A stretch of DNA of 63,473 bases, taken from positions 1-63,473 of the IMG/VR virus record IMGVR_UViG_3300049811_000819; one strand, written 5' to 3'. Shown here piece after piece: positions 4,491-35,678 of this stretch. A model generated the notes under the pieces. The model saw only the letters and a program-made list of their open reading frames with translations. It did no database searches and was not told the origin of the DNA. The translations under genes and the position numbers were made by a program. The stretch is from a virus. Its lineage: Duplodnaviria > Caudoviricetes. The stretch's first letter is position 1; each line of letters starts with the position of its first letter.

Positions 4491-4737
4491 CGATGTTAGG
4501 GGAGTAGATAACATAAGAAAAGTATTAATATATATAGTTTCTAACCTTTTGTTATTGTTGTTTCCTCGATCCTTGACTTTCGTTTTCCCTCTACGAAAAA
4601 CCTTCATCCTAGCGGTTGACCCCGCTTATCCCTGTCCCGATCTCTTTTTCCCCTAGGTTTGGCGAAACATCAATAACAAATCTCTAGAAAGCTCTCCCTG
4701 TAAGCGTTCCAGGATGTTATCTACTACCCTAACATCG
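4491..4737. repeat. Non-coding inverted-arm element A
   Basis: Two head-to-head arms of about 75 bp: ATGTTA-N10-TAACAT...TTTGTTATTG(T/A)TGTTTC. Confidence 0.8.
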
Positions 4738-4753
4738 AGAGGGTATCTGAAAC

Positions 4754-4778
4754 AAAAAAATCCCGCCGATTTGGCGGG
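4754..4778 (-). terminator. Intrinsic terminator after the tail operon
   Basis: CCCGCC-aaatc-GGCGGG followed by ATTTTTTT on the minus strand. Confidence 0.8.
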
Positions 4779-4797
4779 CGCACTAGAAATGGAGGTG

Positions 4798-7362
4798 TCA
4801 AACATTAACAGCGATCGCTTCTTTGAAAGCAACGGGGTAGCTCGAATTTTGAAATACTCGCACAGTGTATGCCAATTGGACTGACCCCCAATCGGTTATC
4901 TGTTGTGATGCGGTATAAACAATTGATCTTTCTCCTGTCTCAGTGATAAATTCCCGTTTTATTGCACTGCCATCGTAGATTCTGACCGTGTAGGTATTGA
5001 GTTCCCCCGGTGCAAACCCCACATCGATATAGTCTGTCCACCGCCCATTAATCCGCGTCCTGCGATACCACGAGATAATCACGTCTCCCCCAGCCCGTTC
5101 CGAGTCCACAACCGCAGAAAACGGCTTGACGCTTTCCAGTGTGACAGTGTGGATTGTCTCGGTATCTACTTCCGTTTCTGTCAATCCGTCTGGCACGATT
5201 TTAAAACGAACTTCCCGGTTGACATCGAACAATTCAACAGGCAAACGGACAAGGTAATCGGTAAGCAATACAAATCTTTCGCCGACAGCATGATTATCGA
5301 TAAAACCCTCAGTTCCTTTAGTACCACGAATCATATAGGAAATATCAAAAGTTAGCGGATTATTTGAGACAATTTCCGCATTTTTAAAAGCAAGAATCTC
5401 GCCTGTAGAAAACCACCCAAGTTGTTTTCCTGCTAAGAATTTCTCAAGCGTTACTGGCTCAATTTCGCCTGAATCCATTCTTATTCGGACTGTATTAAAA
5501 TCGTCAATAAAATTAGGAGAGGAATTATTAAAGTTTGCGCTAAAACTTAATACCGTACCCGTGACACTTTCACCAGTAATAGCAGTAGCAAGTTCGTAGC
5601 TTTCTCCGCCGTCCTCAGAATAAAATATTGTCCCAGTTCGATAGTCTTCATCGCCCTCGATTGCAAGGTAAAAACCAAGATCGGCATCCGATGAGTTGAC
5701 GGGCGGGCATTCAATAACAATCGCTGTAGCCGAGCCGTAGCTTGCTGGAATTTCGCTGGGAGGGGCAAAGGTTAGATTAGTAGTAATTTCGGGCAGGATA
5801 TCGCTTGTGAGTTGGTCTATGCCAGTACAGTCAGTTACAACTCCCCAGGTTGAATCTGCGGTTAGCCCATGGGCAGTATTTTGGGTGAAAATTAGATTGT
5901 CGTCCGCATCGTAAATCCTAAATTCAGTATTGGGCAGGGGCGAAATTTGACCGAGCGGTAATGTAGTCTCGAATCGCAGAGGCGCGCGGTAGGAGACAAC
6001 TGGGCTAAATACTGTCCCTCGTTGAGCGCGTGTAATCCATCGGTTAGCGTTCGGGGGGGGAGTTGGAGAGTTGTATATTCCCAAGTCATACACCGCTATA
6101 TGCGCGCATTCGTTCGAGTATCCCTGAAATCGAGTCGCTTCTAGCTCGATTAAATATCCTGCACCTCGAACTTTTTTTGTGATCTGCAAAACTTCTCGAT
6201 GAAATAGGCGATCACCGTCTGCCGATATTAAATCTCCTACGCCAAGATCGTCCCATGCGGGCAATAAAAACATCTTGGAAAAGGTTTTAGATTGCGAGCG
6301 GCCGAGAAAAAGAACGCGAGAGGCAAGGGTAATAAATAGGTTATCACTAGATATTAATTTGGTTTGAATTGATAGCTCGTTGGTATGCTTTGCAGCAGGG
6401 TCTTTGGCGACAACCGAAATAGCGTCCTGATCTTTGTTGATATTTAATCCGCTTACTGTTACAGCACTTGGTGTTTCTCGGAAATGTGTGAGTTTTATCT
6501 CGTATAAATCTATCGGGCGATCCCCAAATTTTTTTGCTCCTAATGCCAGCCTTGGAATATGGGTAACTTCTCCCGATGTTTGCTGTTTAAAAACAAGCTT
6601 GTCTTTTGTTTCTCGAACTATCAAGAAAAACGCCCTTAATAATTCCCCGATCTGATCAGCGAACGATGTTCCTTCAAATAGTAAGTCAAAACCTTCAATC
6701 TGCAAATTATCAGGAACACCGCTCACATCGATTTTATCTTCTGCTATTCGAGCTATTTCACAAACTTTTTTCAAAATATCTTTGACTCGTGGATTTTCGC
6801 CACTTTCCCCAACTATCTCGACATCGATCCGTGGAAATCCACTGCCTTCAAATTCAGCAATTGGGTAATTATTAAAAACCAGATAACTCCAGCCTTTGAA
6901 TGCGGGAACGGGGTTCGTTTCATTTGCTTGAATTACTGAGGACGACGTAGTTTGATTACCTGTGTAAATTGTGCAACACTCTAAAAACTTTTGACTTCTT
7001 TGGTCGTCCGATCCATCACCATAAACTAATACTGAATTCATCCAAACACGCCGAACAGAACCGATTTTTTGTGCAATCGGATAAGCGGCTGTCAAAAAAT
7101 AAGAAAACGTTTCTGTTTTCTGTCCCCCGCCTTTTCCGCCTGATACTTTTCGCCGCTCTTTTAGCTTCAAACTCCACATCATTGGCAAGCCTTCTTTTCT
7201 CACCCGCCCAAACGGGAGGGAAAGAGAAAAGCCGAATTCAGCATCAGGTACTCCCGTATCCTCGATTTTTCCCTTTTGTTGTCGCGGGCCAGACGGTGCG
7301 AGAAGTGATAGGAGTAAATTGGCTCCGAGTCCAATTGCGGTAGGAATTAGGAAATTAGCCAC
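4798..7362 (-). CDS. Tail tip / host-specificity protein (GTA gp15 / Phage-tail_3-like)
   Basis: LPFGRVR, VRRVWMN, PAFKGWSYLVF, GEILAF, IRGTKGTE..H..GERFVLL and ISWYRRTR motifs. Confidence 0.85.
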   Translation of the reverse strand: MANFLIPTAIGLGANLLLSLLAPSGPRQQKGKIEDTGVPDAEFGFSLSLPFGRVRKEGLPMMWSLKLKERRKVSGGKGGGQKTETFSYFLTAAYPIAQKIGSVRRVWMNSVLVYGDGSDDQRSQKFLECCTIYTGNQTTSSSVIQANETNPVPAFKGWSYLVFNNYPIAEFEGSGFPRIDVEIVGESGENPRVKDILKKVCEIARIAEDKIDVSGVPDNLQIEGFDLLFEGTSFADQIGELLRAFFLIVRETKDKLVFKQQTSGEVTHIPRLALGAKKFGDRPIDLYEIKLTHFRETPSAVTVSGLNINKDQDAISVVAKDPAAKHTNELSIQTKLISSDNLFITLASRVLFLGRSQSKTFSKMFLLPAWDDLGVGDLISADGDRLFHREVLQITKKVRGAGYLIELEATRFQGYSNECAHIAVYDLGIYNSPTPPPNANRWITRAQRGTVFSPVVSYRAPLRFETTLPLGQISPLPNTEFRIYDADDNLIFTQNTAHGLTADSTWGVVTDCTGIDQLTSDILPEITTNLTFAPPSEIPASYGSATAIVIECPPVNSSDADLGFYLAIEGDEDYRTGTIFYSEDGGESYELATAITGESVTGTVLSFSANFNNSSPNFIDDFNTVRIRMDSGEIEPVTLEKFLAGKQLGWFSTGEILAFKNAEIVSNNPLTFDISYMIRGTKGTEGFIDNHAVGERFVLLTDYLVRLPVELFDVNREVRFKIVPDGLTETEVDTETIHTVTLESVKPFSAVVDSERAGGDVIISWYRRTRINGRWTDYIDVGFAPGELNTYTVRIYDGSAIKREFITETGERSIVYTASQQITDWGSVQLAYTVRVFQNSSYPVAFKEAIAVNV

Positions 7363-7393
7363 GTTTTAAGTAAGAATTCTAAAGTTTCTGTTA

Positions 7394-7804: not shown

Positions 7805-7964
7805 GTTCTCTTTCCTCCGATCTTGGGCGAAATCCCATCTCTACCCCGTTTCGGTAAGTAGTACAAAGCGATTCTTTTAGTTCTCGATCGCCCCGACACG
7901 ATGGGAGAATTTCCCACGCAATCGCCGAAGCAAGTATTGCTCCTAATACTACTATTTTTTTCAC
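7779..7964 (-). CDS. Small Cys-rich protein with signal peptide
   Basis: MKKIVVLGAILASAIA; the GTG start overlaps the tape measure TGA (GTGA). Confidence 0.5.
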   Translation of the reverse strand: MKKIVVLGAILASAIAWEILPSCRGDRELKESLCTTYRNGVEMGFRPRSEEREHDCRCVGR

Positions 7965-10900
7965 CCGAAAAATCTCCTTTTAGTTCGCTCATTTTGGGCG
8001 TTCTCACGCTCTTTTAGCTGAGTTAGAGAATATCCCATGTCATTCCGTGATTCTATCGTAATATTGCTCACATTGGTGATTGCAAGAGAACGATCAGATG
8101 AGGAACTATTTGAGTTCGTGATATTGTAGCCAGTTCCCCCTACAAAGCCGCCCGTCGCATAGTTTTTGATTGGGGTATTTTTATATTCTAGATAAGCTTT
8201 TGTCTCGTTCGGAGTAAGCACATACTCGTCTTCGTTGGCCACAATCAGCCGGGGGTTTCTCCCGCCGCTCATGGACCGTTCGCGTCGGAAAGCAGAAATC
8301 ATATTTTTCTCTATCGGGGCATCGGCTCCGATTTTTCCACCAGAACTAAAGAGGCTGAATCCTGTTCCCAGTGAAAAACCGGAAGCGGACGTGAATGGAG
8401 TGAAGGCGACGGACGATCCGAGTCCACCGAGGGAACCAGTGAATAGGCTTAATGCTCCTCCTAGTAGTCCGCCTCCCCCATTGCTAAACGGAACTGGGGA
8501 AGATGCGCCTCCGCTCCCTCCAAAGATTTGCATGAGTAGCTGATTGGCTGCCATTTCGCCAATCTTCTGCAAAAAGCTAGTCAGTACATTCAGCATTTGC
8601 TGTAGAGTATCCCGCCCCCCGGTGAATGCGGCTCGGAGTAAGTCGCCAAAAGCCCCAACTGCGGGATTGGCTTCAATAAATGCAGAAGCCAAATTAGCCT
8701 GTTGCATTTTGTCGAGAGCATCTGACATTTCAGATAACTGGGTAGGAGACAAGGCACCCTCTTGAGCTTGTCGCTTGAGTTCGAGGCGACGACGGGCAAA
8801 ATCTGCTTCTATACGAAGTTTTTGAGATTCTCCTGTACTAAACAGCGTTCCGAGCGGATTTATCCGGTTTCCCGCATCGATCCCGTCTGCAAGCAGGTTG
8901 TTGTAGCGTTCGAGGGCGGCTACTCGTTCATCCTCGATCATTCGCATAGCGGCCGCTTCACCCCGAATCTGTCCATAAGTGGCGAGTTGATTATCGAGAG
9001 CTTTATAGCCTTCAAGAATAGCCGTGTTTCGCTTGTTTTCGGTTTTGAGTGCTTTGAATGCGTCATCGTTGCCTGTATCCTGAAATAGCCGCGCCTGTGT
9101 TTCTTCCGAGTTTTTAGCAAAGTCTGAAGTAAGCTGTTCGAGCGATCGAATCTGGGATTGGATTGACTCTCTTTGTTTTTCGATCTCCCGACTTCCGTTA
9201 CGTCGGGCTTGTTCAATTTTCTCCGAAAACGTGAGATAGCCTTTAGAAGAACGCATTAAGTCGGTCGAGGTATCTCCCGTGTCTCTCAGTCCAATTTCGG
9301 CTTGAATTCGGCTTTCTTGCGTTTGTCGGATTAGTCCCGCAATCCGATCAAGATTTTCCCGTCTTGCTCGTTCGAGTTTAAGCAGGTTTTCTTCTTGTTG
9401 GTTTTGTAGAGCTTTCTCGCGGGTGATCCTGATTTGCGTATTGAGTTCTTGCGCCCGGTCGTAATCAAAAGTCGGAAGCGGAGCAAGCGGGATGTTTGCC
9501 TGTGGCTGCCCTGTTAACACACCAGAATATCTCTCGACATTGCCCGTCGTGTAGTTGGCTCTTTCGACCGGCGTAAGAGGCTGAAGATTCGGGTTGAGAA
9601 CTTCCTGTGCAAAGCCTTCCCAGTTTTTGTAAAGTCCCGATCTCATTAACAAGCGGTCAAACTCTTCTGACCCCGAAGTCTCTACTTGCTGAACTACCGA
9701 TGGATGGCGAATGTCGTCGGCGTTGACCGTTGATCGGTAGCGCATCGTTTTGGGGTCATAGGACGGGGAGGGATCGTATTTGTAAATCTGTCCATTGCCG
9801 TAGTCGATGTAGTCCCCGCGCTGTAATGTTCGAGGATTGTTCGGAGTTCCCTGTCTGTAATGTTCGGAGCTTTCGCTATTGTTCGGAGCTTCCCCAATCG
9901 CCGGGGCTATTTTCGGAACTTTCCCGCCAGCAATCTCTCCCGATTTAGCGAGAAGTTTTTTGGAGTTTTCCAGAATGCCCGCCCAGACTTCGTTTAAGGA
10001 CTTAAATGTTAGTTGTTGCCGTGATAGCTCACGGGCTATCTGAACTTGCTGGTTCCAGAAGTCCCGTAGCTGTTTTAAGCGATTCCGCTCGGCATCATAG
10101 ATTTGCTCTTGAATGTTCCGCAGTTGTCGAGCGAACTGGATTGACTGATCCCGAATGTCGAGCGGTCGTGTTCTCAGGCTATCAGCCTCGCCTTGAATTG
10201 AGGCCACTTCGTCCTGGTATTGCAGTATGAGGTCGTCTAATTGCTTCTGTAGCGAGTTCATGCCAGGCGTGCGCCCAGAAATGAGAGATACTCGCAAGCG
10301 TTGGTTCTCAAGGGTTCTCTGACTTGTTCGGAACTCGTTTTCCGCTTCGATGAGCGATCGCTGTAGTCCTCGGATCATATCTCCGTAGGACTCTCGGAAG
10401 CCTCTTATCTCACGGGCTGATTGAATCTGGTAATCCTCGATTGATACTCGGAGATCGACTACTTGTCTTTGCAGTCCAGTGTAATAATCCTCAAGGTCAA
10501 TTGTCTGGCTACGCAGGGATAACTTAGCCTGTTCAATCTGAAGTTGAATCCGAGCGATATTAGCTTCAATTTCTAGGGGATCACCTTTGAGTGTTCCGAC
10601 AAGCTTTGATTGTTCAAAGGCTAATTGTTTATAGAGTTTCGAGATTTCAATCAGCGTTTGGTCGCGGGCAAAAGTTTTGACCTGACTCGATACGGTTCTA
10701 GCAGTCAGCTTAATTTGCTTGTTTGTTGCCTCGATCTCGATCGCTGTGGTTGCGTAGAATTCAGCGAGGTCGTTTTGTTGATCTCTTAAGGTTAATCGTG
10801 TTCGAGCGATGTTCGCTTTAATTCGGGCAATATTCGAGCGAATTGGTAAAGGATCATCGACATTCGCCGCAAGTCGCTCTTGTTCTACTGCTAACTGTTT

Positions 10901-13900
10901 ATAAAGTTCTTCTAGAGATATTTGTGTTTCGGCAGACTGGAACGAGCGGAGTCTGCTAGTCGGGGTGGCGTTATAGAGTTTTTCTTGTTGTCCCGCAACC
11001 AGAACTTCGTTAGCTGATTGTTTTTCGGCTATCTGGCGACGTTTCCGCTCGTTAATAATCTCGCGGTTGATAGTCTGAATTTCTTTTTCTGTAGCAAGAA
11101 TATCCTGACGAGTTGTGGCGTAAGTTTGTGCCATTTCCAGAATATTTTTAAGAGCCGCATTCGATTCGAGATCGGAGTTTTCGGACATGACTCGCTCGAT
11201 TGCTTCCCGGGAAAGTAAATTCTTGTCAATTGCTTCGGAGAAACTACCGACACCGAGCTTTTTAAGATCGTCCCCAAAGTAGGTAGATAGTGTTTTGTCA
11301 GCCGCTTCTGTGATTCGAGTATTTAGTTTCGCCCCAGTTTCCGATGCAGTTGTTTGAAGGGACGCAATTTTTTCTTTTGCTGTCTGTAACGACTCCTCAC
11401 GCACCTTAACATTAAACTCATACTCGTTAAGCTGTCCCGACGCAAATCCTTTTTCGTTACCGATTTGTCGGGTTAGGGACGCTCTTGCGTTAGCAAAAAT
11501 ACGATTGTCTTGAGCATTGAGCGATCGATTAAATGCGTACTGAAGTTTTTTGTACTGTTTTTCCTGATCCCTGAGAACATTAAGGTAGTTCTGTTGTTCG
11601 GTTTTAAGTCCAGCAATTAGTTCTTTCAATCGAGCCGATTCTGATGCGTAATTTTTAAGAGTGTTTCCGCTTTTTCGATACTCTTCGTCTAGTTGTGCAA
11701 GCGCATTTTCGGCTACCTGTAAATCCGCAGTAATACGAGAACCAACAGAGCCAAAGCGTTTATCGATCGCTTCCTGCTCCGTTTTCATTAACACTTGTTC
11801 TTGCTCATTTAAGCGTACTATCGATGCGGAATCCCCTTTACCTGAAGCAACTGCCCGTTCCGCTCGAATTAATGCAATCTGGTTCCGAACACCTTGCAGT
11901 GAATCGATAAACTTATCGATCCCGCTCGTATCCGAGAGTACAGTCTGATAACCTTTTAAGTTTGTTTCTAGCTCTCCTGCGCCTTCTCGAATGTTTTTAA
12001 GATTTTCTTGCCGATCACGAACGGCATTGTTTCTTTTAAAAGTGTAAACAGTTCCGACTGTTAAAACATTAAGAACTTTTTCGGTTCCCGATAAATTCAT
12101 GTCAGGGAAAAGATTATTCCAGAGATTTTTGTCTGGTTTAATTTTCCCTAAATCCTCTAAAACTTTTCTCGATTCCTTGAGAGTCTCAAGCGAATTTTTA
12201 AGTTCTGCATTCCCATTCTCGAAAATATCATAAAATGTTGTCAGCGCAAAGATTGTCGAGGCGGGAACAATCATCGCTCCGAGTGTTGCTTTTATTACTC
12301 CGCCCGCTACTTTTGCTGTAGCCGTGAGAGTTTGCATCTGGGTTGTTGTTTGCCCTGCTGTAACTCCCATTGCAAACAATGAGGCATTGTAAGAAGATAC
12401 AAGCATTGCTCCCAGTCGAGTAGCGGCAGAAAATTGCAATACTGCTTTTCCGAGTAGCCCGATTGCGCTTATCGCCGCAGATGCGCCTACTGTTACAACT
12501 AAACTGAGGTTGTCGCTTAGTCCCTTCAGGAGAGCGTTGAGTAGCTGTAGCGCAGGGTAAGCCACAACGCCAAGTTTTTCCCCGGCTCCCATCGATAGCT
12601 GTTCAACGTTGTTCTGGTAGCGATTGATTTCTGCTTGGAGAGTTTTGCTTGCCGCTCCGAGTCCTCCTGCGCTCATCCTTTCGTATTCGGACGATAATCG
12701 AGGGATCACATCATCAGTGAGTAATTGTCCTGCGCTGGCTTGTCGGTAGAATTCGGCAGTCGTAAGTCCCGACGCACGAGCGGCTACGATCAGTGCGTCG
12801 TAAAGTCCTCCCGACTCGGTTAATTGTTGAGTAAACTCCTCGACTGACAATACTGACCGAGATGCCATCTGATTAATCGCTCGGAATGTCTCGGCTTGTT
12901 GTTGTGGGCTAGTTTGCCGTACTGCAAGAGCAGACTGAAAACCTTGATAGATGTTGTCGCTTTGAGCTTGCAGTGGCGAATTCATTGTTACGATACGGAA
13001 CTGGGCGTACTGCTTGGCTGATTCTTTAAACGAGATACCGAGTTCGTTAGCCCGATCCTGTAGCCCGTCAATCGACGCATTAACGTCGCTAACGCCAGCG
13101 ACATTAAGGTTGATCTTGATTTGCTCTAATTCAGTAAAGGCGAGAAGCGAACTAGAAACTGCTTGTTGGAATTGAAATGGTAAGTTCTGAATTCCAAAGA
13201 ATAAAGGCTGTAATAGGAATTCGGCGGTTTTAAATAGAGCAAGTCCTCCAATAACTGCCAGCGATGCTTTACGAAGATTGAACATCCCCCCCGTAGCCGC
13301 ATCGAGTTCTTTGTCGAGGGTTCTGAGGGCTTTGCCGCCGACCGATAAGAAATTGATAAACCCATCCGCTTGAGCAATTGCAGCTTTTAGTCCACTTACG
13401 AAACTAGAGGTAAATCCGCTTGAAACGCCCGCTTCTTCAAAGCTGTCAAGAGTTTTGAAGATGTTATCTCTTTTTTGATTCCAGTCGCCAAGAATTTCTT
13501 CCCTTGTCGATTTTTGGGGATTCGATGTTTTTATAGTTTGATTTAAAAGCGATTCTCTTTTTTGTAGGATTGCTCTAGCTTTTATCAAGTCTTCTAGGTA
13601 GCGTTGTGGCGAATCTTTTAGCCCGCGAGACATCTCTGTATTCGTAGCCATCCGCTCCCCGTCGTTCGGGTCAGGAAAACCAGACGCAACACGAGGACGG
13701 CGGGGGGGCTGATTGCCACCTCCTCCCCCAGAAGCTAATCGAGCTTGCTCGGCACGTTGTTGCATCACGTCTGTTGCGTTTCTGGCTTGTTGAGCTAATC
13801 GAGCTTGCTCGGCACGTTGTTGCATCACGAGCGATGCCGCTTTTTGCATTGCTTGAATTTCGGATGCTAATGTTTTAGCTACCTTGCTTTTTGTCGTCTC

Positions 13901-16900
13901 AATTATGTTAATTGCATTTTCGATTCGTCTAGAAATTCTTTTCGCTTGCTTTTCAGTTTCAATAGCTTCTTTTTCGGGCTGATCAAGATTTTGTTTTTTA
14001 ACTGCTTGTTTAGGTTTTATTTTTTCTTCAATAACACTAAACTCAGCATCTATAATACGAGATGGATTAGCATTATTTGACTGTTTTGACTGTCTTGGTT
14101 GTGGTATATTTTCAACAACTGGAATAGCCGATAAAGGTTTTTGTTGTTGATTTGCTTTTTTGAGTTTAGATGCAACTTTTCCAGTTATTCCAAGCAAACT
14201 TAGTAAAGAAGCAACAGTTAACCCATAATTGCCTATAAATTTTAACAAATCGGTAGTTAATGCTTTCTCGGCAGATTCAACCTTTTTAGAAACATTTTTA
14301 ACTGGTAATATTTTGCTAGTTATTGATTGAGGACTGATAGACAATTCTTTATCAACAATAGAGTCAGAGACAATACTTGCTAAAAGATTTTTTTCTTTTT
14401 TAACAGGAGTAGGAGTAGTTACACTAGGAGGTTTAGATAGCTTCGCTTGTTTGTTTTCTATTTGAGGACGTTCAAAAAATCTTAATTGGTAAGGGGTAGA
14501 TTTGCCTGTCCCACCTAACGATTGCGGTAAAATGCGACTTAATGATTTACTTGGTACTGTTAACCTTGCCATATTCCCATGATCGGGAAGCATAACAGCA
14601 GTAAATCCCATAGAGCGAGCATATTTTTCTAACTGTTGTGGAGTCATATCTTTTTGACCTTCCATGGCAGTTAAATTACCTTCTTTTGTTTTACCAAAAA
14701 ATACTCTAGGACGAGGAACTTGGTAAGCTAACTGCTGTTTTACCGAGCTATGATAGCCTCCTTTGTAATTAGCTGGTCGTTGAACTTCGTCGTTGTATAA
14801 AACATGAAGACCGCCAATAAAAGTATCGTAATCGCTTAATCTATTCGATTTAGCTCCGCCATAGCCAAATTTTAAATTACCTTGTTTATTGATGCCAATA
14901 AAACCCCTTTCTTCTGCGGCGGCACGATTACGAGATAACTGCAAAACTTGTCCTCTTTGAACAACGTCTGCAATCATGTTTACTTTCTGATTTTTATTTT
15001 GCAAGAAAAATCTATCAAACATCGGGCCGGAACTATAAGCAATTGCCTGTTTATCCCGAAAAGCTTTTTTATCTACATCAACCTGCTTAACAACCTCTGC
15101 CCCAGTTGTAGCGGGGTTCATCGTGACCCCCTTAAAGGATTCTGTTTGGATAAATTGCTGTGCGTTGACAGGCATCCCACTAGAAGCTATGGCAAGAGTA
15201 GCCATAAGTCCCTTAACTGCCGGATTGGATAATCCTTTTTGTAATTCCTTGATAACTTTAGTGGTTAATTCTTTTACCTTAGTAGTTAATCTGCTTTCTT
15301 GTCTTTCAACGCCTATTCCTATTCCTTCAATTAGGTTTTTACCCGCTTTCTCTCCTTTTCGTGATGGCGATTGGTTTCCTAATCCCTTGTTAGTTGCGTT
15401 TACAATATCGATAGCATTTTGGTAAGCGATTTTTTCTGCTTTGTTATCTTTTAATCCTTTGGCTAAACCTTCGTTAAGGTTTTTGCCTGCCTCAATACCT
15501 TTTTTCCCGATCTCAGGGAGAAAAGTAGATTTCAATCCACCTGCTTCTGATGTTCGCTCCATCAATCCACCCATTTCTGGTGGAAGTGCTTTAAATCCGT
15601 ACCGTTCCCACAGTTTTTTTGATCGTGCGTCAGTTGGTAGAGTTACAAGGGGCGTATTGCCAACATGGGCAAATAGCTCTTTCATCCATCGGTTTAATAC
15701 CTCTCGGACTTTAGCTCGCGTTTCTGGATTAACAGGGGGAGTAAATGTGTTATTTACCATCAACGACGAAAGCATAAAGCGCCCGTCTTTTAGACCATGA
15801 CCATAAAGTCTAACTTTATGGTCATCGATAGTTTCTTCTCTAACGAAATCGCTAGTCTTGTTAGATAAGGGTTTTTCAGAAAGACTCACTGAGGGATTTT
15901 TCGATAGCTTTTTTGTTAATAATTTTTGTGTATTTTCAACAACGTCGCCACCTTCCCACTTGACCATTTTTGCTTCGGTTGCAAGGTCTTTTAACCCAGA
16001 GATTGGATCGGCAAAGCGAGATTGGATAATTTTTTCAATATCACCTAAAAACAGACCCACTTCAAAAGCTTTGACAATTTCTTCGGCTAACTCTTGAAAA
16101 TCGGATGATGCAAGCTCTTTTTCAATGCCTATCTCTACACCTTTGATTAAGTTTCTTCCTGCTTTTTCCCCTTTCCAAGATGGCGATCTATTACCTAATT
16201 CATTATTTAACCCATCAATAATATTTTTGGCATTTTTTCTAGCGATTTTGCCAGCTTTGTTATCTTTTAAGCCTTTAGTTAGACCTTCATTGAGGTTTTC
16301 AGCTGCTTTAATGCCCTCGTCGGTTAGATCGACTACGGTGAATTCAACATCAATTATTTGAGCTTTATCAAATAATTTTTTAACCTCATCGATTAAATGG
16401 CCAAGCATTCCCCCTAGTGATTGATTTATTTTCCCTCCCTTTAATTGAGGGTCTTCTATAAATCTTTTTATTTCAGCTGCCGATGCGACTGCAGATTTAT
16501 AAGCTTCTTTGATTTTGGCTAAACTTTTGGTATCATCTGGCATATTTAATGCCTCAGTTAGCAAATTTTTAGCCTGTTGGTATTGACCTGACTTTATCGT
16601 TTTTACATAATCTTTGGGAACCTTGACTGGTTCAAAGGGGGCTAGTTCTATTGGGTTAGGGAGTTTTGATGAAGCTAATCTTTGATAACTCTGTTTAAAC
16701 GTTTTAATAAGAGCGTCGGTTCTTCCTTGTAATGCTTTCTGGTCGTTGGCTCCTAGCCTCTGGGGAATGCTACCGGTGGCCGCTCCTAGAAGTTTTTTGA
16801 CCCCTTCCCCTGCCATTAACGACGATCCAGCAACCGCTCCCCCTTGCGCTAAGACACTGATAGTGCCGTTAGTTAGTTCGGTTACGAGGTTCATTACTGC

Positions 16901-19900
16901 TTCTGTTAGCTGTTGACCTACTCCGAACGGTAAGCCACTAAAAGCTTGTGTCATTTGCATTGACACTGCTTGAAGCATTTCCTGTCCACCAGCGCTCATC
17001 GCCCCTGACAGAATAGTTCGCATTTCGTTGATAACTGCGGCATCTAATCCGAGGGGGAGAGCGTGAAGGGCGGCCGCTCCTACTGCGGCAGTTCCCCCTA
17101 GCTGTAATGCTTTTTTACCTAAGCCCATCCCTGGTATAGCCATGACAGGGCGCTCGATCGCTTTCAATACCGTGAAAACAGTTTGACCGAATTTGATAAT
17201 ATCTAGAGAGGTATCCTTGAGAGCGTTTCTAAGTATTCTGCTCGCTTCTTTTACCTCTCTAATCAATACCTGATTTAATAGGTCTGAAATACTCTCATTA
17301 CCCGACAAAAGCTGTATTTCACCGCTACTATCAGGAGTCGATAATCTAGTAGTTAAACTGCTTTTTAAGCCTGCTTGGGTTTTGATAGCTATACTTTCTA
17401 AGACTTTTTCTAGCGGAGTATTTCCTCTGTCTGTTTCGCTAATACCAAAACCTTCAGGAGCGGGCGGCAAGAGCTTTTGTGAGGATGCTTTGTTAACTGC
17501 ATTTACGAAAGACTGCATTAATTCGGCATTAGATTTAGCCCACGGGTCGTTAGGTGTGCTATTTTGCCACGGATCGATTAAACGACTAGCATATTTGGCT
17601 AGAATAGCTTTTTCTATTCGGGATAGACTAGAAACTATTTGTTTTGTGGCACTGTGAATAGTTTTTTCAATTAAGTTTTCTTTTCCTGTTAAATCTTTTT
17701 GTTTGTTAACTACATCTGATACCTCTTGAGGCTTTATTTGTTGATTCTTGTTTAAAAGTGCCGCAAACTCGGAGATCGCTTTTTCGAGCCTATCAATGCT
17801 AATGATAGCGACTTCTCTGTTCTGGGAGTCTTTGCTTAATTGCCCCGATCTGCTACTTTTAGTTGGGGGACTAACAATGTCGCCTCCTACATTAAGGGTA
17901 TTTTGTTGTCTTCTCCGCAAAAAACGCGGATCATTAACCATTAATGAAGTGTCAGCATACCCCTCATCAAAAGCTTTTTGAAATATTTCCGTGGTTTTTT
18001 TATCGTATCCTTGAGTGCTTCGTCCTTTTGCCCCTTGAACATCTCTATTTATCTGTTCTTGGCGAGTTGTCTGATCTTTTGATAGCTTTGTTGCATTAGC
18101 AAAATCAATAGCTTTTAGTTCGTTTTCTGGACTAATTAAAACATTTTCTGTATTTAGATCAAAATGAGCATATCCAGATTCGTGTATATTTTTGAGTAAG
18201 CGTGCATAACGTTTTACATAATTTGTAAAAGCTTTAATATTTTCTTGGGTACTTAAATCGGCTTTTCGTAAAATATCGTTTAAAGAGCCAACTGTTTTAA
18301 TATATTCCTGAATAAAATACTCACCTTTTCTTGCGGTAATCGGGCGTGGTGCAAGTCCTTGTTTTGCCATTGCTAACTGAGCCTGGAACTCTTTTGGGGT
18401 TCCAAGTTTTCCTTGATTTAGTTCCGTGACTGGTGTTTTAATCGCTAAATTTCCAAGTCGATACACGGCTCCCGTAAAACCTTGTCCTACTTTTTCCGCT
18501 TTAAGTACATCAAGGTTTTCAGGGAGTATTTTTTGGGATTTCTGTAATGCTCGATTAACATTAATTAAGTCAAATGGCTGATACTGAATTGACTTGATAT
18601 TCTGTGATTCAGATGTTAGGGATTGCGATACATTTTCTAGCGCACTCTCGATTAATCCTGTATTTGTTCTTAAAGACGCTTCAAATCCAAGAATAGCGTT
18701 TGAGAGGTTAAAGAAAAAGTCGGTAATATTTTCTACGCTTTCGCCCATTGTGGCGATCTCTTTAATTACCTTGTTTTTCCCTATAAAAGTCGGAACTGAT
18801 GCGTTTGTGTCAACGTATTTATTAGCCGCATTTATCATTTCGCCAATACGCGAGAATGGGCTAGTTTTTAAGAGTTGAAGGTATTCTGATTGCGCTCCCT
18901 TGTCTCCCCCTGCGATTCTTTTTTGCAATTCGGAAACACGTCTTAAAAAGCCTTGATAAATCTGTGCTTCTTTCCGACGTATTTCAATCAAAGCCTGAAC
19001 GACTTTTTTGGCCGCCTTGTCTGCTTCCGTGTTCATGGGCATTTTGTCAACCCACTTTAATAAATCGGGCAGGGACTGGTCTTTGACTAGCGGCAATCCT
19101 TTTTGATTAGTTGTTTGCGAGAGTTTGTAGAGAATATCCCCAAATCGAGGATTAATGTTTTTACGAATATTGCTAGGCGCATCTTCTCTACGAGAAAACA
19201 TTTCTCCGTATGTTGCTGAGTCTGGAGCAGCATTGTCTGGCTCTGTAACGTAGTGATAAGGTTTTGCTCCAAACTGTTTTTCGTACCCTGCTTCAGCTAG
19301 GGTATCAATAGCATTGATAAAGTTAGTCCATTCTGTCTCAAATTCTTCTCCCATCGTGCGGAAAATATTTTTCCGTGTCTCCATCCAAAAGCGTAAAAGC
19401 GAGCCGAAGTTGCTTGGCTTAAGATCGATAGTATCGGTTCCTGAATTAACAAGTTTCTCGATTTCTTCTAGGTTCGAGAGAAGCGGGTCAAGGTAAGAAA
19501 AAGGAACACTTGCTCCCGTAAGAATTTCTGCAAGAGTATTCTGGTAGGCGGAAATTGTGCTTTGTAGTTCTTTTTGTTCTCCCCCAGATGTTTTGCTTGG
19601 ATTACCAAGAACTGGGATCGTTTTTAAAAACTCTGTCCGTTCAGCTATTTCTTGATCAACGGACGTAATCAACGCAAGTAATTCATCTAGTTTTTTAGTA
19701 TCGTTGACTGATAACCTTGATCGGTCAACACCTGACACAGATTGATCTAATTTTTCTTTGTATTTTTTTAATTCTGTAATTCGCTTAACAATTGGAGCAT
19801 AAAGATGCTTGAGCGACTCTCTGAGACTTTTATTAAATTGTTTTTGAGATGTAGCAAGATTGCTTACATAAAGTCCAATCTTGTGATCTTCCCCTGTTCT

Positions 19901-26746: not shown

Positions 26747-26781
26747 TTTGTTTGTTTCCTTTGTTTTCTCTCGATGTAATC

Positions 26782-26812
26782 ACTATAACTCGCTATTTCT
26801 TGACTTGTCAAG
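26782..26812 (-). promoter_or_regulatory. Promoter/operator copy 2
   Basis: TTGACA-18-TATAGT; CTTGA-CAAG-TCAAG. Confidence 0.75.
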
Positions 26813-26898
26813 TAAAACTATAGAAGTTTTCTCTATAAGTTTCTGAATGATTACTATAGACTATCCTCTATATCTTCCCTGTTATCGAGACTGAGAAA

Positions 26899-27225
26899 AT
26901 GTTAGGAGCCAGATAACACCCCTAAATCCTCTCCCCGTCTAGAATACAAAGATTTGTTATTGATGTTTCGCCGAATCTAGGGGAAAGAAAAAAAAGACAC
27001 AAGTAATCAGACACAACCATAAGAATCGCCCTAGAGACACAAAACCTGATTAAGAGATAGATTCTATCAAGATGACAAGATGGATAGGGATAAAGACGAT
27101 TTTCGAGGAGATAGGTAAAATGAACGACGCAAAAAAGGAAACACGAAAATCACCACAACATCAATAACAAAAGTCTGGAACGTAAGCGAGGAAAGGACTA
27201 GGGAATGTTAGAGAGTAGATAACAT
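26899..27225. repeat. Non-coding inverted-arm element B, in opposite orientation to A
   Basis: GATTTGTTATTGATGTTTCGCCGAATCTAGGGGAAA matches the reverse complement of about 4647-4682. Confidence 0.78.
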
Positions 27226-27315
27226 TAAAGAAGATCAGATAACATTTTTCTTTCTCTCTCCCTTGTCTCCCTTACTGTCTTACGCCTTGCTACAGACATA
27301 CTACAAGGACGACAC

Positions 27316-27348
27316 AAAAAACCGCTAGAGCATATCTAGCGGTTTTTT
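27316..27348. terminator. Bidirectional intrinsic terminator
   Basis: AAAAAACCGCTAGA-gcata-TCTAGCGGTTTTTT. Confidence 0.85.
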
Positions 27349-27381
27349 GGTCAAGGGTTCCACTCGGAACCCCGTGAGAAT

Positions 27382-28353
27382 CTAGTCGATAATCTGATGA
27401 GTGCGAGTTTCGCCCTTACCCTCAGAAACAAGGGTTAATCCGTTCCATTTTATGTAACTTAAATGGTTACGGGCGTTGTGATAAGACCATCCCATCAATT
27501 CTTGCATCTCAGCGACAGTGCGGGGCTGTTCCCGCATGAAGTCGATCAACTTCTGTGGTACCTTCGGGGTTTTGGCGTTCGGGTTATTAACGCGAGACCC
27601 CGGCGCACCGCTACTGCCAGACTTGCGGGCTTTTTTCTCGATGCCTAGCCATAGATCCCATGGCTGAGACTTAAACCATTTAGGATTAAAAAATGCCGCG
27701 TCCATCGTGGACATAATCGCCCCATCTTTGTTGATGGCGTAGTATTTTTCGGTGTCGGTGAATATTCGACAGTCCATGTTTACGAGGTTAGTGTCAAACC
27801 ACAGATTTAATCCTTTCGACTCTAACCACTCCTCGGTAGTAGGGACGTGGATCGGGGTATTGAATTCGATCCATTCCCCATAAGAGATAGTTTTGGTTTT
27901 GACTCCCAACGACTCCCAGACGTTAGCAGGAATTGTCGCAATGGGATTGCACTCGGTATCCACAAGCCGAATCGTATCCGGGTCACACCGGTAAACCACG
28001 ACTTGATATTTTTTATCAGGTGTGACATTAACCTCCATATCCCCCATATCGATGGGGTGATCGACGGTCACCGTTCCCCGGTTAGTTGATTCGATTTCTA
28101 GTTCGCTATCAGTTTCAATTTCTTCCTCAATTTCTTCAGTTACTTCCAATTCTTTCACTTCCTCAATTTCTTCCTCAATTTCAGCCACATTGACTAGATT
28201 CGCTTCTATCCAATCAACAATAGAATTGCGAAGTTTGTCTTTAGAAATCCCTACTACCTTGATTCCCGCTTCATGAACAGTATTTAATTCTTTAGCTACA
28301 GACTGTAATTCGGCAAATACTTGACAGTTTTGGATGGTTTCGATAGTAATCAT
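27382..28353 (-). CDS. Acidic hypothetical protein with a C-terminal winged HTH
   Basis: PRTVAEMQELMGWSYHNARNHLS. Confidence 0.65.
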   Translation of the reverse strand: MITIETIQNCQVFAELQSVAKELNTVHEAGIKVVGISKDKLRNSIVDWIEANLVNVAEIEEEIEEVKELEVTEEIEEEIETDSELEIESTNRGTVTVDHPIDMGDMEVNVTPDKKYQVVVYRCDPDTIRLVDTECNPIATIPANVWESLGVKTKTISYGEWIEFNTPIHVPTTEEWLESKGLNLWFDTNLVNMDCRIFTDTEKYYAINKDGAIMSTMDAAFFNPKWFKSQPWDLWLGIEKKARKSGSSGAPGSRVNNPNAKTPKVPQKLIDFMREQPRTVAEMQELMGWSYHNARNHLSYIKWNGLTLVSEGKGETRTHQIID

Positions 28354-28410
28354 GGTCGTTTTCTTTTTTGTGATGTTTTATTCGGGGCTTGTTTCGTTCC
28401 CCATGACTTA

Positions 28411-28440
28411 AGAATGCCGCTCATTTCTTGAATTGTCAAC
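28411..28440 (-). promoter_or_regulatory. Promoter/operator copy 3
   Basis: TTGACA-17-CATTCT; GTTGA-CAAT-TCAAG. Confidence 0.68.
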
Positions 28441-28585
28441 TAATACAAGCGCACTCCCCCAAAATCTTAAAATACTTGCCTAGCAAGTATTCTGTCGATT
28501 CTCGCAAAAAACTCTCAGAAAAATTCTTGAAACTTTTTTCTGAGAGTTTTCTCAATGCCCATCATAGACAAGTATCAATGAAGGT

Positions 28586-29605: not shown

Positions 29606-29608
29606 AAA

Positions 29609-30214: not shown

Positions 30215-30261
30215 AATTGAATTGTCAAGATTGTAAATAGAAGCACCTATATATTAACCGA

Positions 30262-31590: not shown

Positions 31591-31601
31591 CGAGTCAATT
31601 A

Positions 31602-33179
31602 ATGCTAAAAAACAGGCAAAGAATCAGTCCCAAAAATTTACAGCGCATACGGGAAAACAACTCTCGTTATTCGACTAATGTAGATTACAATTATCCTGAG
31701 CCTCAGATAGGAAAACAGACCTTGTTTTTTAATTCTGATGCGGATATTGTCTGGTTTGGCGGGGCGGCCGGAAGCGGGAAATCAAGAAACCTTCTCGCTT
31801 ATTGCGCGCGAGAAGAGTTTATTCGTAACCCTCTTTTTAATGCAGTAATTTTTAGACTTTCCTATAGTCAGATAACGAACCCCGGAGGTTTAGCTGATGA
31901 ATCGCAATTGCTTTATCGAGATTTAGGCGGGAAATTAATTACAAAACCGTTTGATTGGAAATTTCCATCGGGGGCAAAAATATCTTTTCGGTATCTACAG
32001 CATCGAAAAGATATGTTTGCTTGGCAGGGATCGCAGGTAAATTTAATCTGCTGGGATGAATTAACTCATTGGGATGATGGAGGTGAGGCATTTTGGTATT
32101 TACTATCCCGTAACCGATCAATGTCTGGGATTAAGCCAAGAATTCGAGCCACAATGAACCCTGACGCTGACTCTTGGGTAGCTGATATGATCCGATGGTG
32201 GATCAACCCACAAACTGGCTATCCAATCGAGGAAAGATGTGGAATAATTCGATATTTTGTTCGATCGGCGGGGCAATTAATATGGGGTGATAGTGAAGAA
32301 GAACTGATTGCCCGATTCCCAAAATCCAATCCAAAAAGTTTTACTTTTATTAATGCCACAATTTACGATAATCCGATCTTCTTAAAAGCTAACCCCGAAT
32401 ACATTGCGAACCTTGAAGCTCTACACCCGATTGAGCGAGAAAGACTATTACACGGAAATTGGAAGATTAAATATGAGACAGGAACCGTGTTCGATCGCAC
32501 ATGGTTTGAGATATTAGATAATATTCCCGATGACTGGAAATTAATCGGAAAAGTACGATTCTGGGATTTGGCCGCTACAGCAAAAGAAAACGCTGAAAAT
32601 TATCACTGCTACACATCGGGTACTCTTGTCTATAAATACGAGCGAGTTAAAAATACTTTATCCGATGGCACGATTGTCAAGGAATTTGCTTATGTAGTCG
32701 CTGATAATATATGCGAACAGAAAAAAGTCGGTGAAGTCGAATTAATGTTAAAAAACACTGCTGAAATAGACGGGAAAAGCGTAGCAGTTCGATGGGAGAA
32801 AGAAGGTGGGTCAAGCGGTAAGTTCGTAGAGAACACGATTACAAATGTAATACAGGAATATCACCCGAATCACGACGTAGCGGCGATCGCTCCACAAGGG
32901 GATAAATTAACAAGAGCGTTACCTGCGGCGACGGCAGCCAGTAGGGGGCAGGTTTTTATCCTTCGGGATGCTGTCTGGAATACTCGCTTTTTAAATGCTT
33001 GTCAGAGTTTCGATGGGAATAAAAAGCCACCACCGGTTAACGACCTTGTGGATAGTCTTTCTGGTGCGTTCTATTCCCTTGAAAATGAGTTTTTCGGAGG
33101 GGATGACGATGGTGTGATGCCAATTGTGTCACCAGCACCGATTAACGAGTTTAGGGGGGGATTGAAGGGAAGATATTAA
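31602..33179 (+). CDS. terL: Terminase large subunit
   Basis: Walker A GGAAGSGKS, Walker B ICWDE, ATMNP, LLHGNW; nuclease motifs WDLA and DLVDSLS. Confidence 0.95.
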   Translation: MLKNRQRISPKNLQRIRENNSRYSTNVDYNYPEPQIGKQTLFFNSDADIVWFGGAAGSGKSRNLLAYCAREEFIRNPLFNAVIFRLSYSQITNPGGLADESQLLYRDLGGKLITKPFDWKFPSGAKISFRYLQHRKDMFAWQGSQVNLICWDELTHWDDGGEAFWYLLSRNRSMSGIKPRIRATMNPDADSWVADMIRWWINPQTGYPIEERCGIIRYFVRSAGQLIWGDSEEELIARFPKSNPKSFTFINATIYDNPIFLKANPEYIANLEALHPIERERLLHGNWKIKYETGTVFDRTWFEILDNIPDDWKLIGKVRFWDLAATAKENAENYHCYTSGTLVYKYERVKNTLSDGTIVKEFAYVVADNICEQKKVGEVELMLKNTAEIDGKSVAVRWEKEGGSSGKFVENTITNVIQEYHPNHDVAAIAPQGDKLTRALPAATAASRGQVFILRDAVWNTRFLNACQSFDGNKKPPPVNDLVDSLSGAFYSLENEFFGGDDDGVMPIVSPAPINEFRGGLKGRY

Positions 33180-33312
33180 AAAAGGGACTAAAGAATTTCT
33201 CTAGTCCCTAATTTGTACAAATAGATCAACTTACCTAAGCTTTCTAGCCACAAGATAAGGTTTATCCCTTCATTGTAAGACAAGTCAGCCCCTTGACAAA
33301 AACTTCTAGGGC

Positions 33313-34212
33313 TTGACACTCCCGTCGTCTCGAAGGGGTTGCACCAGAGAACAAAAAATCGGCTTGCTAGTTGTAGATTCCCGTTTGATCGCCGGTGAGC
33401 TAGGGATCGAGCATCGTGGATTACGTCAGACAGTCGAGAAGTATTTGAACGAGTTACAAGAGTTCGGGACGATAACATTTCAAATGTCATCGTCACGGAT
33501 GCCGGATGGACGCATTAACCCGAAACCTGAGCGCTATTGTTTCCTCAACGAAGATCAGGCGACCTTCCTGATGACGCTTTCCCGCAACACTCCCCAAGTA
33601 GTCGCTTGTAAGCAAAACCTAGTCAAGGCGTTCTCAAAGGCTAAAGAGTTAATCAAAGAAGTCAACCCTGCAAAAAGCGATCGGGAATTAGAGATCGAAA
33701 AAATCCGGGCGATCACCGAAAACGTCTATGCGATAAGCAAAACCGACGTTGAGAAAATGCGGGAACTCAAAAATTTCTCCCCTCCTACCCAAGTCGAATA
33801 CTATCGCCTAGAACAAGAACGAGTAAAAGAGCAGGCGGAACGTGCCAAGACAGAGGCTGAACAGCTTCGGTTAGAGCGTTCCAAAATAGTCCACTCCCCG
33901 AAAAAAGAAACCCTGTACCCTGTAGGAACTACTCTACTCACCCCGGAACAGCTAAAAGACAAGCTAATTACCGACATGGCCGCCTACATCGACAAAATGG
34001 TCAACGAAAAAGGAATCAAGCCGAAAATACGGGATTTACAGCAGAAATTCCAGTCCCGCAAGGTTCCCGATGATAATGGCAAGCTTGTCAGAATTAATGC
34101 GAATATTTTGCGATCGCTCCTACCGGAAGCTTTAGAGCGATGCGAATGCGATCGAGAAAATGTTCTGTTGGGATTACCCCTAAACCGAGTCAGAGTCTCT
34201 CGAACCCACTAG
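33313..34212 (+). CDS. Rha-family antirepressor-like protein; start uncertain, possibly 5'-truncated
   Basis: VVDSRLIAGELGIEH...LNEDQATFLMTLSRN...KQNLVKAF. Confidence 0.8.
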   Translation: MTLPSSRRGCTREQKIGLLVVDSRLIAGELGIEHRGLRQTVEKYLNELQEFGTITFQMSSSRMPDGRINPKPERYCFLNEDQATFLMTLSRNTPQVVACKQNLVKAFSKAKELIKEVNPAKSDRELEIEKIRAITENVYAISKTDVEKMRELKNFSPPTQVEYYRLEQERVKEQAERAKTEAEQLRLERSKIVHSPKKETLYPVGTTLLTPEQLKDKLITDMAAYIDKMVNEKGIKPKIRDLQQKFQSRKVPDDNGKLVRINANILRSLLPEALERCECDRENVLLGLPLNRVRVSRTH

Positions 34213-34291
34213 AAACTTTCAGTTTAAAATAGTGATGCCCCCGATCGCTTCGGGGGACTAACCAATTCAACCTAAAAGGCAGGTCAAAATG
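34211..34291 (+). promoter_or_regulatory. Antirepressor promoter and two-hairpin leader (copy 1)
   Basis: GAAACTTT..TAAAAT; GCCCCCGA-TCGCT-TCGGGGG-ACTAACCA; ACCT-AAAAGGC-AGGT; ATG. Confidence 0.75.
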
Positions 34292-35053
34292 GCTAACTCA
34301 AGTTTAGCAGTTTTCGAGTTTCAGTCTAATTCCGTCCGAATTCTCTCAATCGATAATGAGCCGTGGTTTGTGGCGCGGGATGTTTGCAATGTACTTGGTA
34401 TTTTAAATGTTTCGCAAGCTCTTGCGCGATTAGATGGGGACGAAAAGCGTCTTGTGAATAGCGAAGGGGGTATCATTTCAAATGATGATCCAGACGTAAC
34501 AAGGCTTCTAGCTGTTAACGAGTCTGGTATGTACTCCCTTGTACTATCGTCCCGCAAGTCAGAAGCACGGGCTTTCAAAAAATGGATCACTTCAGAAGTC
34601 CTCCCCTCAATCCGAAAAACGGGAGGATATGTGCAACAGGAGTTGTCGGAAACTGAAAAACTGAGGATTAAGCTAGAAAACGCAAAAATCGAGCTAGAAA
34701 TTGCAAAACTGCGGCTAGAAACGACGAAAGTAGATGTAGAGCGAGAGCGTTTTGCGTTGGAATCGAAACAACTAAGTGAGCCAATCCCTCAATTTTCGGA
34801 GATTCCTGTCGCTAATGCGTATAGCTCCAATGCGGCTAATACTATCCAGCGAGCAAAGCTAATCAACGCAATCGCCGCATACATGGACAAATGCGAGCGA
34901 GAACACAAACGGATTCCTGATATTCGGAATTTGCACCAACGATTTCAGCGATGGATTTTGATAACCGACGATGGCAATCCAATTCGGGTCAATTCTGGCA
35001 TACTTAAAAATTTGATGCCAGAAGTCAACGCTTGTCGTGCCGAGCGTCATTAG
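34289..35053 (+). CDS. Bro-N domain antirepressor-like protein
   Basis: EPWFVARDVC, NESGMYSLVLSSRKSEARAFKKWITSEVLPSIRKTG. Confidence 0.92.
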   Translation: MANSSLAVFEFQSNSVRILSIDNEPWFVARDVCNVLGILNVSQALARLDGDEKRLVNSEGGIISNDDPDVTRLLAVNESGMYSLVLSSRKSEARAFKKWITSEVLPSIRKTGGYVQQELSETEKLRIKLENAKIELEIAKLRLETTKVDVERERFALESKQLSEPIPQFSEIPVANAYSSNAANTIQRAKLINAIAAYMDKCEREHKRIPDIRNLHQRFQRWILITDDGNPIRVNSGILKNLMPEVNACRAERH

Positions 35054-35126
35054 CGATCGCTCCTACCAGAAACTCTAGAACGCTCTAAAGTCTCTCGAAC
35101 CCACTAAAACGATTAATCCTACGTCC

Positions 35127-35158
35127 ATCCCCCTAGAGAAGCTTCTAGGGGGATTTTT
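35127..35158 (+). terminator. Intrinsic terminator
   Basis: ATCCCCCTAGA-gaagct-TCTAGGGGGAT followed by TTTT. Confidence 0.75.
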
Positions 35159-35249
35159 AGTGCGATGTAGGGGATGTGGAACCGGGGAGGGATTGGGGGG
35201 GGTAGGGACGGGATAGGGACAAGGATAGGGGGATGTTAAAACGTTAGAG

Positions 35250-35678
35250 CGATGTTAGGGAGTAAATAACGTAGGAAAAAGATATATATGTCAATACTTC
35301 TAACCTTTTTGTTAGTATGTTTCACTTTTTTACCCACTTACTCTTTTTTGGTTCAACCCCCCTACTTTTACTGCTGACCTTGCTAATTTTTCTAGCGAGT
35401 AGTACAAGTATTCTATGTTAAAGATTTTGACTCGATGTTAGGGAGTAAATAACATAGAGAAAAGATATATATATCAATACTTCTAACCTTTTTGTTAGTA
35501 TGTTTCACTTTTTTACCCACTTACTTTTTCCCGATCCAATTTCCTATCTTTCCACGGATGACCTTGCTCTATCCCCTCCCTTTTTTTCCTTCCCCTATGA
35601 TCCTTGAAACATTCATAACAAATTTCTACAGACTAGACAGGGTAAGCGTTTCAGGATGTTATCTGATACCCTAACATC
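35250..35678. repeat. Non-coding inverted-arm element C with a duplicated left arm
   Basis: Direct repeat of about 92 bp at 35250 and 35433; inverted arm at 35606-35678 closely matches 4664-4737. Confidence 0.85.

Follow-up and report, generated by a model that had tools for sequence, protein, structure and literature searches.

What are the three homologous non-coding elements, here named A, B and C, that lie between positions 4,491 and 35,678 of the virus record IMGVR_UViG_3300049811_000819, and what might they do for the phage that carries them? The window analysed (called W in comparisons) is the complete IMG/VR provirus record of 63,473 bases, and its phage is a cyanobacterial-type prophage. 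A first-pass annotation of this DNA had offered iteron-like replication origins or multi-subsite recombination sites. Judged by analogy with known systems, the elements could well be loading sites for a winged-helix replication initiator, comprising an origin and auxiliary sites like ori and crr of phage P4 or the ori of Staphylococcus aureus pathogenicity islands (SaPIs), a reading that stands about evenly balanced in our estimate. It is carried by the architecture of the elements, their conservation in triplicate, their match to arrays beside primase or helicase genes and the DUF3987 gene of the sister phages; from these we infer binding, the identity of the binder and a function in replication.

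The elements are 250-430 bp long and are built from seven homologous arms of about 85 nt, each consisting of TGTTA-N9/10-TAACA, a spacer of 36-38 nt and TGTTA-N3/4-TGTT. Their parts are listed here, G001 and G003 being the sister phages described below.

4484..4562, plus strand: A, type-1 arm, with an outer TGTTA at 4484, the palindrome TGTTA-N10-TAACA at 4494-4513 and the inner TGTTA-N4-TGTT at 4550-4562
Spacer of this type-1 arm, 36 nt: AT-rich 16-mer at 4522-4537
4563..4665: A core, purine-rich on the minus strand, kept in G001 and G003
4666..4737, minus strand: A, type-2 arm, with the inner pair at 4666-4678 and the palindrome at 4715-4734
26880..26967, plus strand: B, left arm (type 2), with an outer TGTTA at 26880, the palindrome at 26900-26918 and the inner pair at 26955-26967
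26968..27156: B core, purine-rich on the plus strand, kept in G001 and G003
27157..27245, minus strand: B, right arm, with the inner pair at 27157-27169, the palindrome at 27206-27224 and an extra TAACA at about 27237-27241
35233..35529, plus strand: C, two tandem type-1 arms with a partial core between them
35530..35607: C core, purine-rich on the minus strand, homologous to the A core
35608..35678, minus strand: C, type-2 arm, with the inner pair at 35608-35620 and the palindrome at 35657-35676
35836..35925, minus strand: C, degenerate extra (fourth) type-2 arm beyond two 32-nt repeats, intact in its G001 counterpart (33188)

The coordinates, the arm layout and the two offsets given by the first-pass annotation were all recovered by the pattern scan and the arm alignment. 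The distance from TAACA to TGTTA is 41 bp in five arms (4509/4550, 4674/4715, 26914/26955, 27165/27206 and 35616/35657) and 43 bp in the other two (35267/35310 and 35450/35493), and the MAFFT alignment of the seven arms shows invariant pentamers with divergent spacers, at a mean column identity of 60%. The pattern exceeds chance and is confirmed as real: TGTTA-N8-11-TAACA occurs six times in the window, in the arms only (4494, 4715, 26900, 27206, 35436 and 35657), the seventh arm, at 35253, having TAACG instead of TAACA. When any pentamer was allowed, a scan for the same architecture found six arms in the window, all with TGTTA, and none in each of five shuffles. In addition, the density of TGTTA/TAACA reaches 7 per 300 bp at A and C only, with 0.81 expected, and most arms bear an extra TGTTA 10-21 bp outside the palindrome.

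Two kinds of arm can be told apart. In type 1 (A left and both C left arms), the spacer holds a stretch of 16-20 nt that is 90% AT, and the only such stretch of 20 nt sits in a type-1 spacer; in type 2 (A right, B left and C right), the spacer is richer in GC and a conserved block comes after it, and the B right arm is type-2-like. Both left arms of C belong to a 183-bp duplication, with copies at 35250-35346 and 35433-35529 that are 95% identical. Regarding the cores, those of A and C are homologous, with the purine-rich strand being minus, and that of B is of unrelated sequence and purine-rich on plus, which bears out the purine/pyrimidine skew noted at first.

Conservation was followed in contigs of IMG/VR, of which G001 and G002 were found via a neighbouring gene, and the G003 lineage with its many fragments via the arm pattern. 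G001 and G002 are one phage (100% identity), G002 joining both ends of G001 across a 111-bp exact direct repeat (G001 1499-1609 and 73090-73200), which we read as the attachment (att) site, the two contigs being integrated and excised copies. An IS605-type TnpB gene lies in the G001 flank (L057:44-1408). From end to end, W, G001 and G003 keep a collinear order, with DNA identity being about 70% (about 66-79%), and G001 and G003 have exactly three elements each at places syntenic with those of the window (66.75, 43.14 and 33.19 kb in G001; 28.13, 49.07 and 63.5 kb in G003), each in the same orientation relative to its flanks. The cores are kept across the lineages as well, one common to A and C and another in B, and orthologous elements are more alike than paralogous ones, B having its own core. 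Since the elements stand at the same places in three lineages, they are old, inherited parts of the phage clade. Absence from relatives had been named beforehand as what would speak against any function; all three are retained, in position and orientation, in two other lineages. The supposed contribution of the elements to a scrambled gene order finds no such backing, as the "scrambled" order is itself conserved: among W, G001, G003 and nine further contigs spanning an element, all nine of which are collinear with G003 through it, no inversion or reshuffling at the elements was seen, as far as assemblies can tell.

Small in-place differences between copies were seen in the arms. The AT-rich 16-mer of the type-1 arms (4522-4537, 35281-35297 and 35464-35480) is reverse-complemented in place between copies: W_A, G001_A and G001_C agree in its orientation, and W_C, G003_A and G003_C have the opposite one, between fixed flanks that make up a short inverted repeat. 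G001 also differs from W and G003 by a flipped palindrome spacer in the B right arm, and both cases look like hairpin-loop flips.

The same motif and geometry recur outside the clade. A search pattern drawn from the window alone (TGTTA, 9-10 nt, TAACA, 36-38 nt, TGTTA, 4 nt, TGTT) matched 76 IMG/VR loci, 18 of them in the own clade, and 7 of the 34 distinct non-clade sequences passed an objective iteron test, which asked for a direct pair at least 7/9 identical and an extended palindrome. With control gaps, each giving 23 loci in the whole scan, the passing fraction was 1/18 at 26-28 nt and 2/16 at 46-48 nt. Four of the seven passing loci (L082, L095, L134 and L138) come directly 3' of helicase genes of the D5_N/DUF5906/Pox_D5 or DUF927 kind; L064 is near a Cch helix-turn-helix (HTH) domain, and the other two are without an informative neighbour. 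The metagenome scan returned at least 118 loci, and in 8 of 19 iteron-like ones chosen by eye (L152, L182, L155, L162, L164, L176, L198 and L216) the array is inside or just after the 3' end of AAA_25, DUF3987, D5, Prim-Pol or VapE genes; two more are among genes for single-stranded DNA-binding protein or nuclease, and the rest are uninformative or too short. In L164, the full two-armed plan starts immediately after the DUF3987 stop codon: outer repeats come first, then the palindrome, a 36-nt gap and the direct pair, and beyond an AT-rich centre the mirror image follows, a layout that L095 and L134 resemble. L092 is alone among the similar arrays in being near a terminase.

Other searches define how far the likeness reaches. 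A stricter first pattern had no match in IMG/VR, element A had no blastn match in INPHARED, and 41 loci of relatives by the large terminase protein (TerL), amounting to 475,751 bases, held no palindrome of this kind. The genome-contig scan for the pattern gave one locus, in a metagenome-assembled genome, and the A-core pattern gave 7 loci, from the same lineages only. A k-mer cluster scan of the distant relatives G008 and G009 was set aside, as it picked out CRISPR arrays instead of iteron arrays and was too insensitive to rank the elements of the window first. These CRISPR-like arrays, in relatives of 84 and 88 kb, are at about 70,550-71,000 in G008 and about 83,310-83,700 in G009, with repeats of some 36-37 nt and spacers of similar length.

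Concerning the protein that could read the arrays, the sister phages offer a candidate. G001 (L057:2311-5196) and G003 (L141:1775-4597) encode proteins of 962 and 941 amino acids (aa), 79% identical, having a zinc-finger-like start, a weak Toprim match and a DUF3987 domain (E 1e-25), and several homologues are named Toprim enzyme by the Joint Genome Institute. The G003 gene abuts the point where homology to the window ends, at window base 62,474, and the syntenic place in the window is occupied as follows.

62265..63473, minus strand: CoiA-like gene, at the place of the G003 DUF3987 gene, its start codon being the record's last base

Among the matches listed for the DUF3987 protein, none is from a 70,903-base contig, which is the length on record for proteins of the window itself, from which it follows that the window's copy is absent or cut short by the contig end; the record stops at the very spot where this gene is expected. 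The C-terminus of the G001 protein resembled the Rha N-terminal domain weakly (E 0.35) and without Pfam support, and this likeness was discarded. When the C-terminal parts of 13 helicases from iteron loci were compared with 42 chosen window proteins, only noise was obtained.

The proposed mode of action would start from A, B and C as multi-site platforms for one sequence-specific protein with TGTTA as its recognition pentamer. The reading part would most likely be a winged-helix domain belonging to a phage replication initiator, and the zinc-finger/Toprim-like/DUF3987 protein of about 950 aa from the sister phages is the probable binder. Each arm would present about five sites in fixed register, an outer one, an inverted pair 15 bp apart and a direct pair 41 bp further, and a strand-skewed core of 100-190 bp would separate two arms that point towards each other. 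If the SaPI and P4 origins are a guide, one initiator or helicase oligomer may be positioned per arm, and melting could take place in the 90% AT stretch of 16-20 nt within the type-1 arms. As A and C have arm types and core in common, they would be equivalent origins; B differs in its core and both of its arms are type-2-like, so that it would serve either as a further origin or, in the manner of P4 crr, as a helper acting in cis.

The closest known systems agree with this proposal in part. An account of SaPI replication (PMC9371898) describes Reps that bind penta- or hexanucleotide iterons via a C-terminal winged helix, with 6-12 iterons downstream of rep, which flank an AT-rich region by two or more per side and in opposite directions. 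A, B and C share with this plan the short iterons, two or more on each side and in opposite orientation, as each arm has about five TGTTA and the arms are inverted; in SaPIs and related phage-inducible chromosomal islands, the iterons are read by the winged helix of a self-loading helicase. The same blueprint is seen in L164, L095 and L134 beside DUF3987 or D5-type genes. In a report on the P4 alpha protein (PMC4234260), the origin repeats are bound via a winged helix and the primase is of Toprim type; an initiator with Toprim-type primase, helicase and winged-helix origin binder is the P4 counterpart of what is proposed here. P4 differs in having two clusters versus three here, and the helicase family here is DUF3987, from the sister phages only. 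The P4 genome has more than one iteron cluster, the clusters being kilobases apart, and its iterons are octamers starting with TGTT. Moreover, Bacillus phage SPP1 (oriL/oriR) and herpes simplex virus (oriL/oriS) have several origin copies per viral genome, with initiator-binding repeats around a melting region; their initiator families and site layouts are unrelated to those considered here.

Several findings weigh against an assignment of this kind. The SaPI ori is single, immediately downstream of rep and AT-rich in its centre, whereas here there are three dispersed copies, none next to an initiator or helicase gene, the centre is strand-skewed, with 35-60% AT in the A core, and the window is without a primase-helicase gene; A, B and C hence depart from the known type. 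Because the AT-rich centre and the place beside an initiator gene were both looked for and not found, these are not plain SaPI- or P4-type origins. In the six frames of the window there is no DUF5906, Pox_D5 or DUF3987, nor any tblastn match to the G001 protein, and the sole Walker A motif in a window helicase is that of an SF2 RadD-like protein. Even in the sister phages, the DUF3987 gene is tens of kb from every element (gene at 2311-5196 in G001 and at 21.8-24.6 kb in G003), and five more distant TerL relatives also encode DUF3987; of the two among these that were scanned in full, one lacks the architecture and the other has it once, with another pentamer. The GC skew tracks gene orientation, with no signal at the elements, and DnaA boxes form no clusters (25 matches versus 24.4 expected). 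Finally, the enrichment at the 36-38 nt gap is one of small counts (7 versus 1 and 2), and the 19 metagenome loci were selected by eye.

As a separate observation on the SF2 helicase, its orthologues in G001 (L057:7557-10421) and G003 (L140:16746-19724) carry an intein with Hint and LAGLIDADG domains, and the window orthologue (59134-60993) is without it.

The rival that survives best, and which we consider rather unlikely, takes A, B and C as regulatory or architectural protein-binding arrays that control adjacent promoters or loop the three sites together; candidate coating proteins would be a 323-aa winged-helix-like protein or one of six Rha/Bro paralogues. The features on which it draws are the following.

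4403-4375, minus strand: promoter-like site about 80 bp below A, carrying the repeated CTTGA-N4-TCAAG motif
4778-4762, minus strand: terminator-like hairpin by A
26811-26782, minus strand: promoter-like site about 70 bp below B, with the CTTGA-N4-TCAAG motif too
27382..28353, minus strand: gene of the 323-aa protein, ending 157 bp before B, with a winged-helix-like C-terminus

A and B were first described as sitting between a terminator and a regulon promoter, which stands for A and for the promoter side of B; the hairpin and T-run by B, at about 27318-27346, were read from the sequence and are not listed by the scan. A and B end some 70-90 bp upstream of promoter-like sites with a common operator-like motif, the 323-aa gene is close to B, C lies between two Bro-N genes, and the lack of a primase-helicase gene in the window also suits regulation. 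However, no promoter of the A/B kind was found beside C, another gene stands between the 323-aa orthologue and B in G001, and the geometry of the arms matches arrays beside helicase genes. As for the 323-aa protein, it is a lead only as a candidate binder of the arms, whichever their role. Its family is an orphan, with 7 members at E up to 0.001 in a profile search of 1.84 billion proteins and no informative Pfam domain in them, and its AlphaFold model is poor (predicted local distance difference test, pLDDT, 54). Its C-terminus gave DUF3489, which is unrelated to DUF3987, at E 0.11, and matched HTH clusters in structure rows of the Atlas at a template modelling (TM) score below 0.5, which serve as leads only; VIA-align returned helical N-terminal matches only (Z up to 5.4), and sequence searches of the PDB returned nothing. 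PDB searches with the 359-aa, Gp3-like, DUF932-like and 657-aa proteins of the window also found nothing, and the DUF932-like protein had, among named phages, distant Sinorhizobium phage matches only.

The regulatory surroundings merit description in their own right. CTTGA-N4-TCAAG overlaps the -35 box and precedes several operons (4388-4413, 26796-26815, 28424-28443, 41430-41449, 51457-51476 and 62253-62272), and looks like the signal of a phage regulon, as a promoter or operator motif. The six Rha or Bro-N genes are in cassettes with common upstream repeats and hairpins (33313-35053, 36212-36988, 42559-44125 and 52270-53025). Between the right arm of C and its degenerate extra arm there are two 32-nt near-palindromic repeats (35708-35739 and 35762-35793), possible operators with counterparts at the same place in G001 and G003. 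A G-run-rich tract with G-quadruplex-like spacing, as judged by eye, is located directly outside the C left arm (35170-35232), and comparable tracts are found beside B in G001 and beside C in G003. In addition, an open reading frame (ORF) at 40857-41180 is BlaI-like, of the winged-helix type.

An improbable variant would have A, B and C as orphan origins whose firing depends on a primase-helicase provided in trans by a related phage, a replication hitch-hiking between prophages, or as arrays that titrate a rival's initiator. Under this reading, the clade of temperate phages would have uncoupled the loading sites from the initiator gene and dispersed them in three conserved copies at module boundaries; the window's primase-helicase gene would be missing, with the CoiA-like nuclease gene in its place and the elements intact.

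The second reading of the first-pass annotation, multi-subsite recombination or inversion sites, would make the inverted pair the crossover and the direct repeats the accessory sites, as in transposon resolution sites or invertible switches, and seems to us very improbable. It is consistent with the inverted plus direct pair in each arm, with the inversion of two arms around a core, with the small in-place flips described above and with the presence of one recombinase gene:

1-1107: tyrosine-type integrase gene, 3.4 kb from A, the sole recombinase found in the window

Internal resolution sites of the Tn4430/Tn5401 type similarly combine an inverted pair of recombinase-binding motifs with an adjacent direct pair of accessory motifs; unlike them, the elements have no dedicated recombinase gene beside them, show no sign of recombination within or between copies, and have fixed orientations in collinear genomes, a minor inverted population being one that would escape assemblies. 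There is also no pentamer cluster near the att repeats of G001. The recombination half of the original alternative is not supported, and the origin half gains partial support by its analogy with arrays at primase/helicase 3' ends and by the DUF3987 protein of the sister phages.

Packaging recognition sites for a small terminase, with repeat clusters flanking the cut region, are scarcely probable. The large terminase gene is located 2 kb before C, a 100-aa ORF just before it has weak winged-helix matches (E 0.06), and the two-cluster layout is reminiscent of the P1 and SPP1 pac sites as generally described; yet there are three copies, two of them far from terminase genes, and the similar arrays elsewhere are beside helicase genes, with L092 the only one near a terminase. 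The contig ends near elements are explained by repeat-induced assembly breaks, and L108 bridges the G003 ends, which speaks against packaging too.

Equally doubtful are miniature inverted-repeat mobile elements inserted in intergenic DNA, which the size, the non-coding nature, the long inverted arms and the several copies would suit, as would the folding of A as a long DNA hairpin (z -6.5). However, B folds poorly (z -1.7), so that the likeness of the arms reflects sites and not pairing; the arms have only the pentamers and few blocks in common, no flanking (target-site) duplication is visible at A, B or C, and all three are at orthologous sites in three lineages, orthologues being more alike than paralogues. 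Genes for structured non-coding RNAs would account for the conserved, strand-skewed cores and are next to negligible in likelihood, as the window yielded neither a tRNA or tmRNA nor any match to Rfam at gathering thresholds, and RNAalifold on eight units gave -10.1 kcal/mol with a covariation term of -0.2, the pairs being merely pentamers.

Returning to the initiator-loading reading, the replication origins of cyanobacterial temperate phages are, to our knowledge, essentially unmapped, and the arrays would, if they are loading sites, provide three precise candidates in one genome. Their signature would then be an inverted pair, a 36-38 nt gap and a direct pair of TGTTA-type iterons, which also points to candidate origins next to several unrelated primase/helicase families, in contigs of phages and of metagenomes. 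The unusual points are the triplication kept across lineages and the initiator gene missing in this window; a triplicated origin that is unlinked from its initiator gene and conserved across lineages would be an unusual layout for a phage of 60-70 kb, and one would ask whether its copies fire at the same time, fire one after another or act as helpers. Should the prophage of the window truly be without an initiator, it would be a natural case for origin use in trans.

The remainder of the window includes phage tail, terminase, lysis and Rha/Bro genes. The tail module has a single ORF of 4,583 aa (7961-21712, minus strand), with a protein-kinase-like domain at residues 1128-1221 and an exact 37-nt repeat at 13733/13793, 60 bp apart. 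A 72-bp exact tandem duplication (57995-58138) is within a small ORF at 57958-58203. An EAL-domain gene, of the cyclic-di-GMP phosphodiesterase type, is among the head genes (48773-49618, minus strand). The protein encoded at 1615-2694 on the minus strand, after the Gp3-like gene, belongs to a large unnamed family of cyanobacteria and metagenomes (151 matches) with invariant DHH-like and DxD-like motifs, and is probably a DHH-type phosphoesterase or nuclease.

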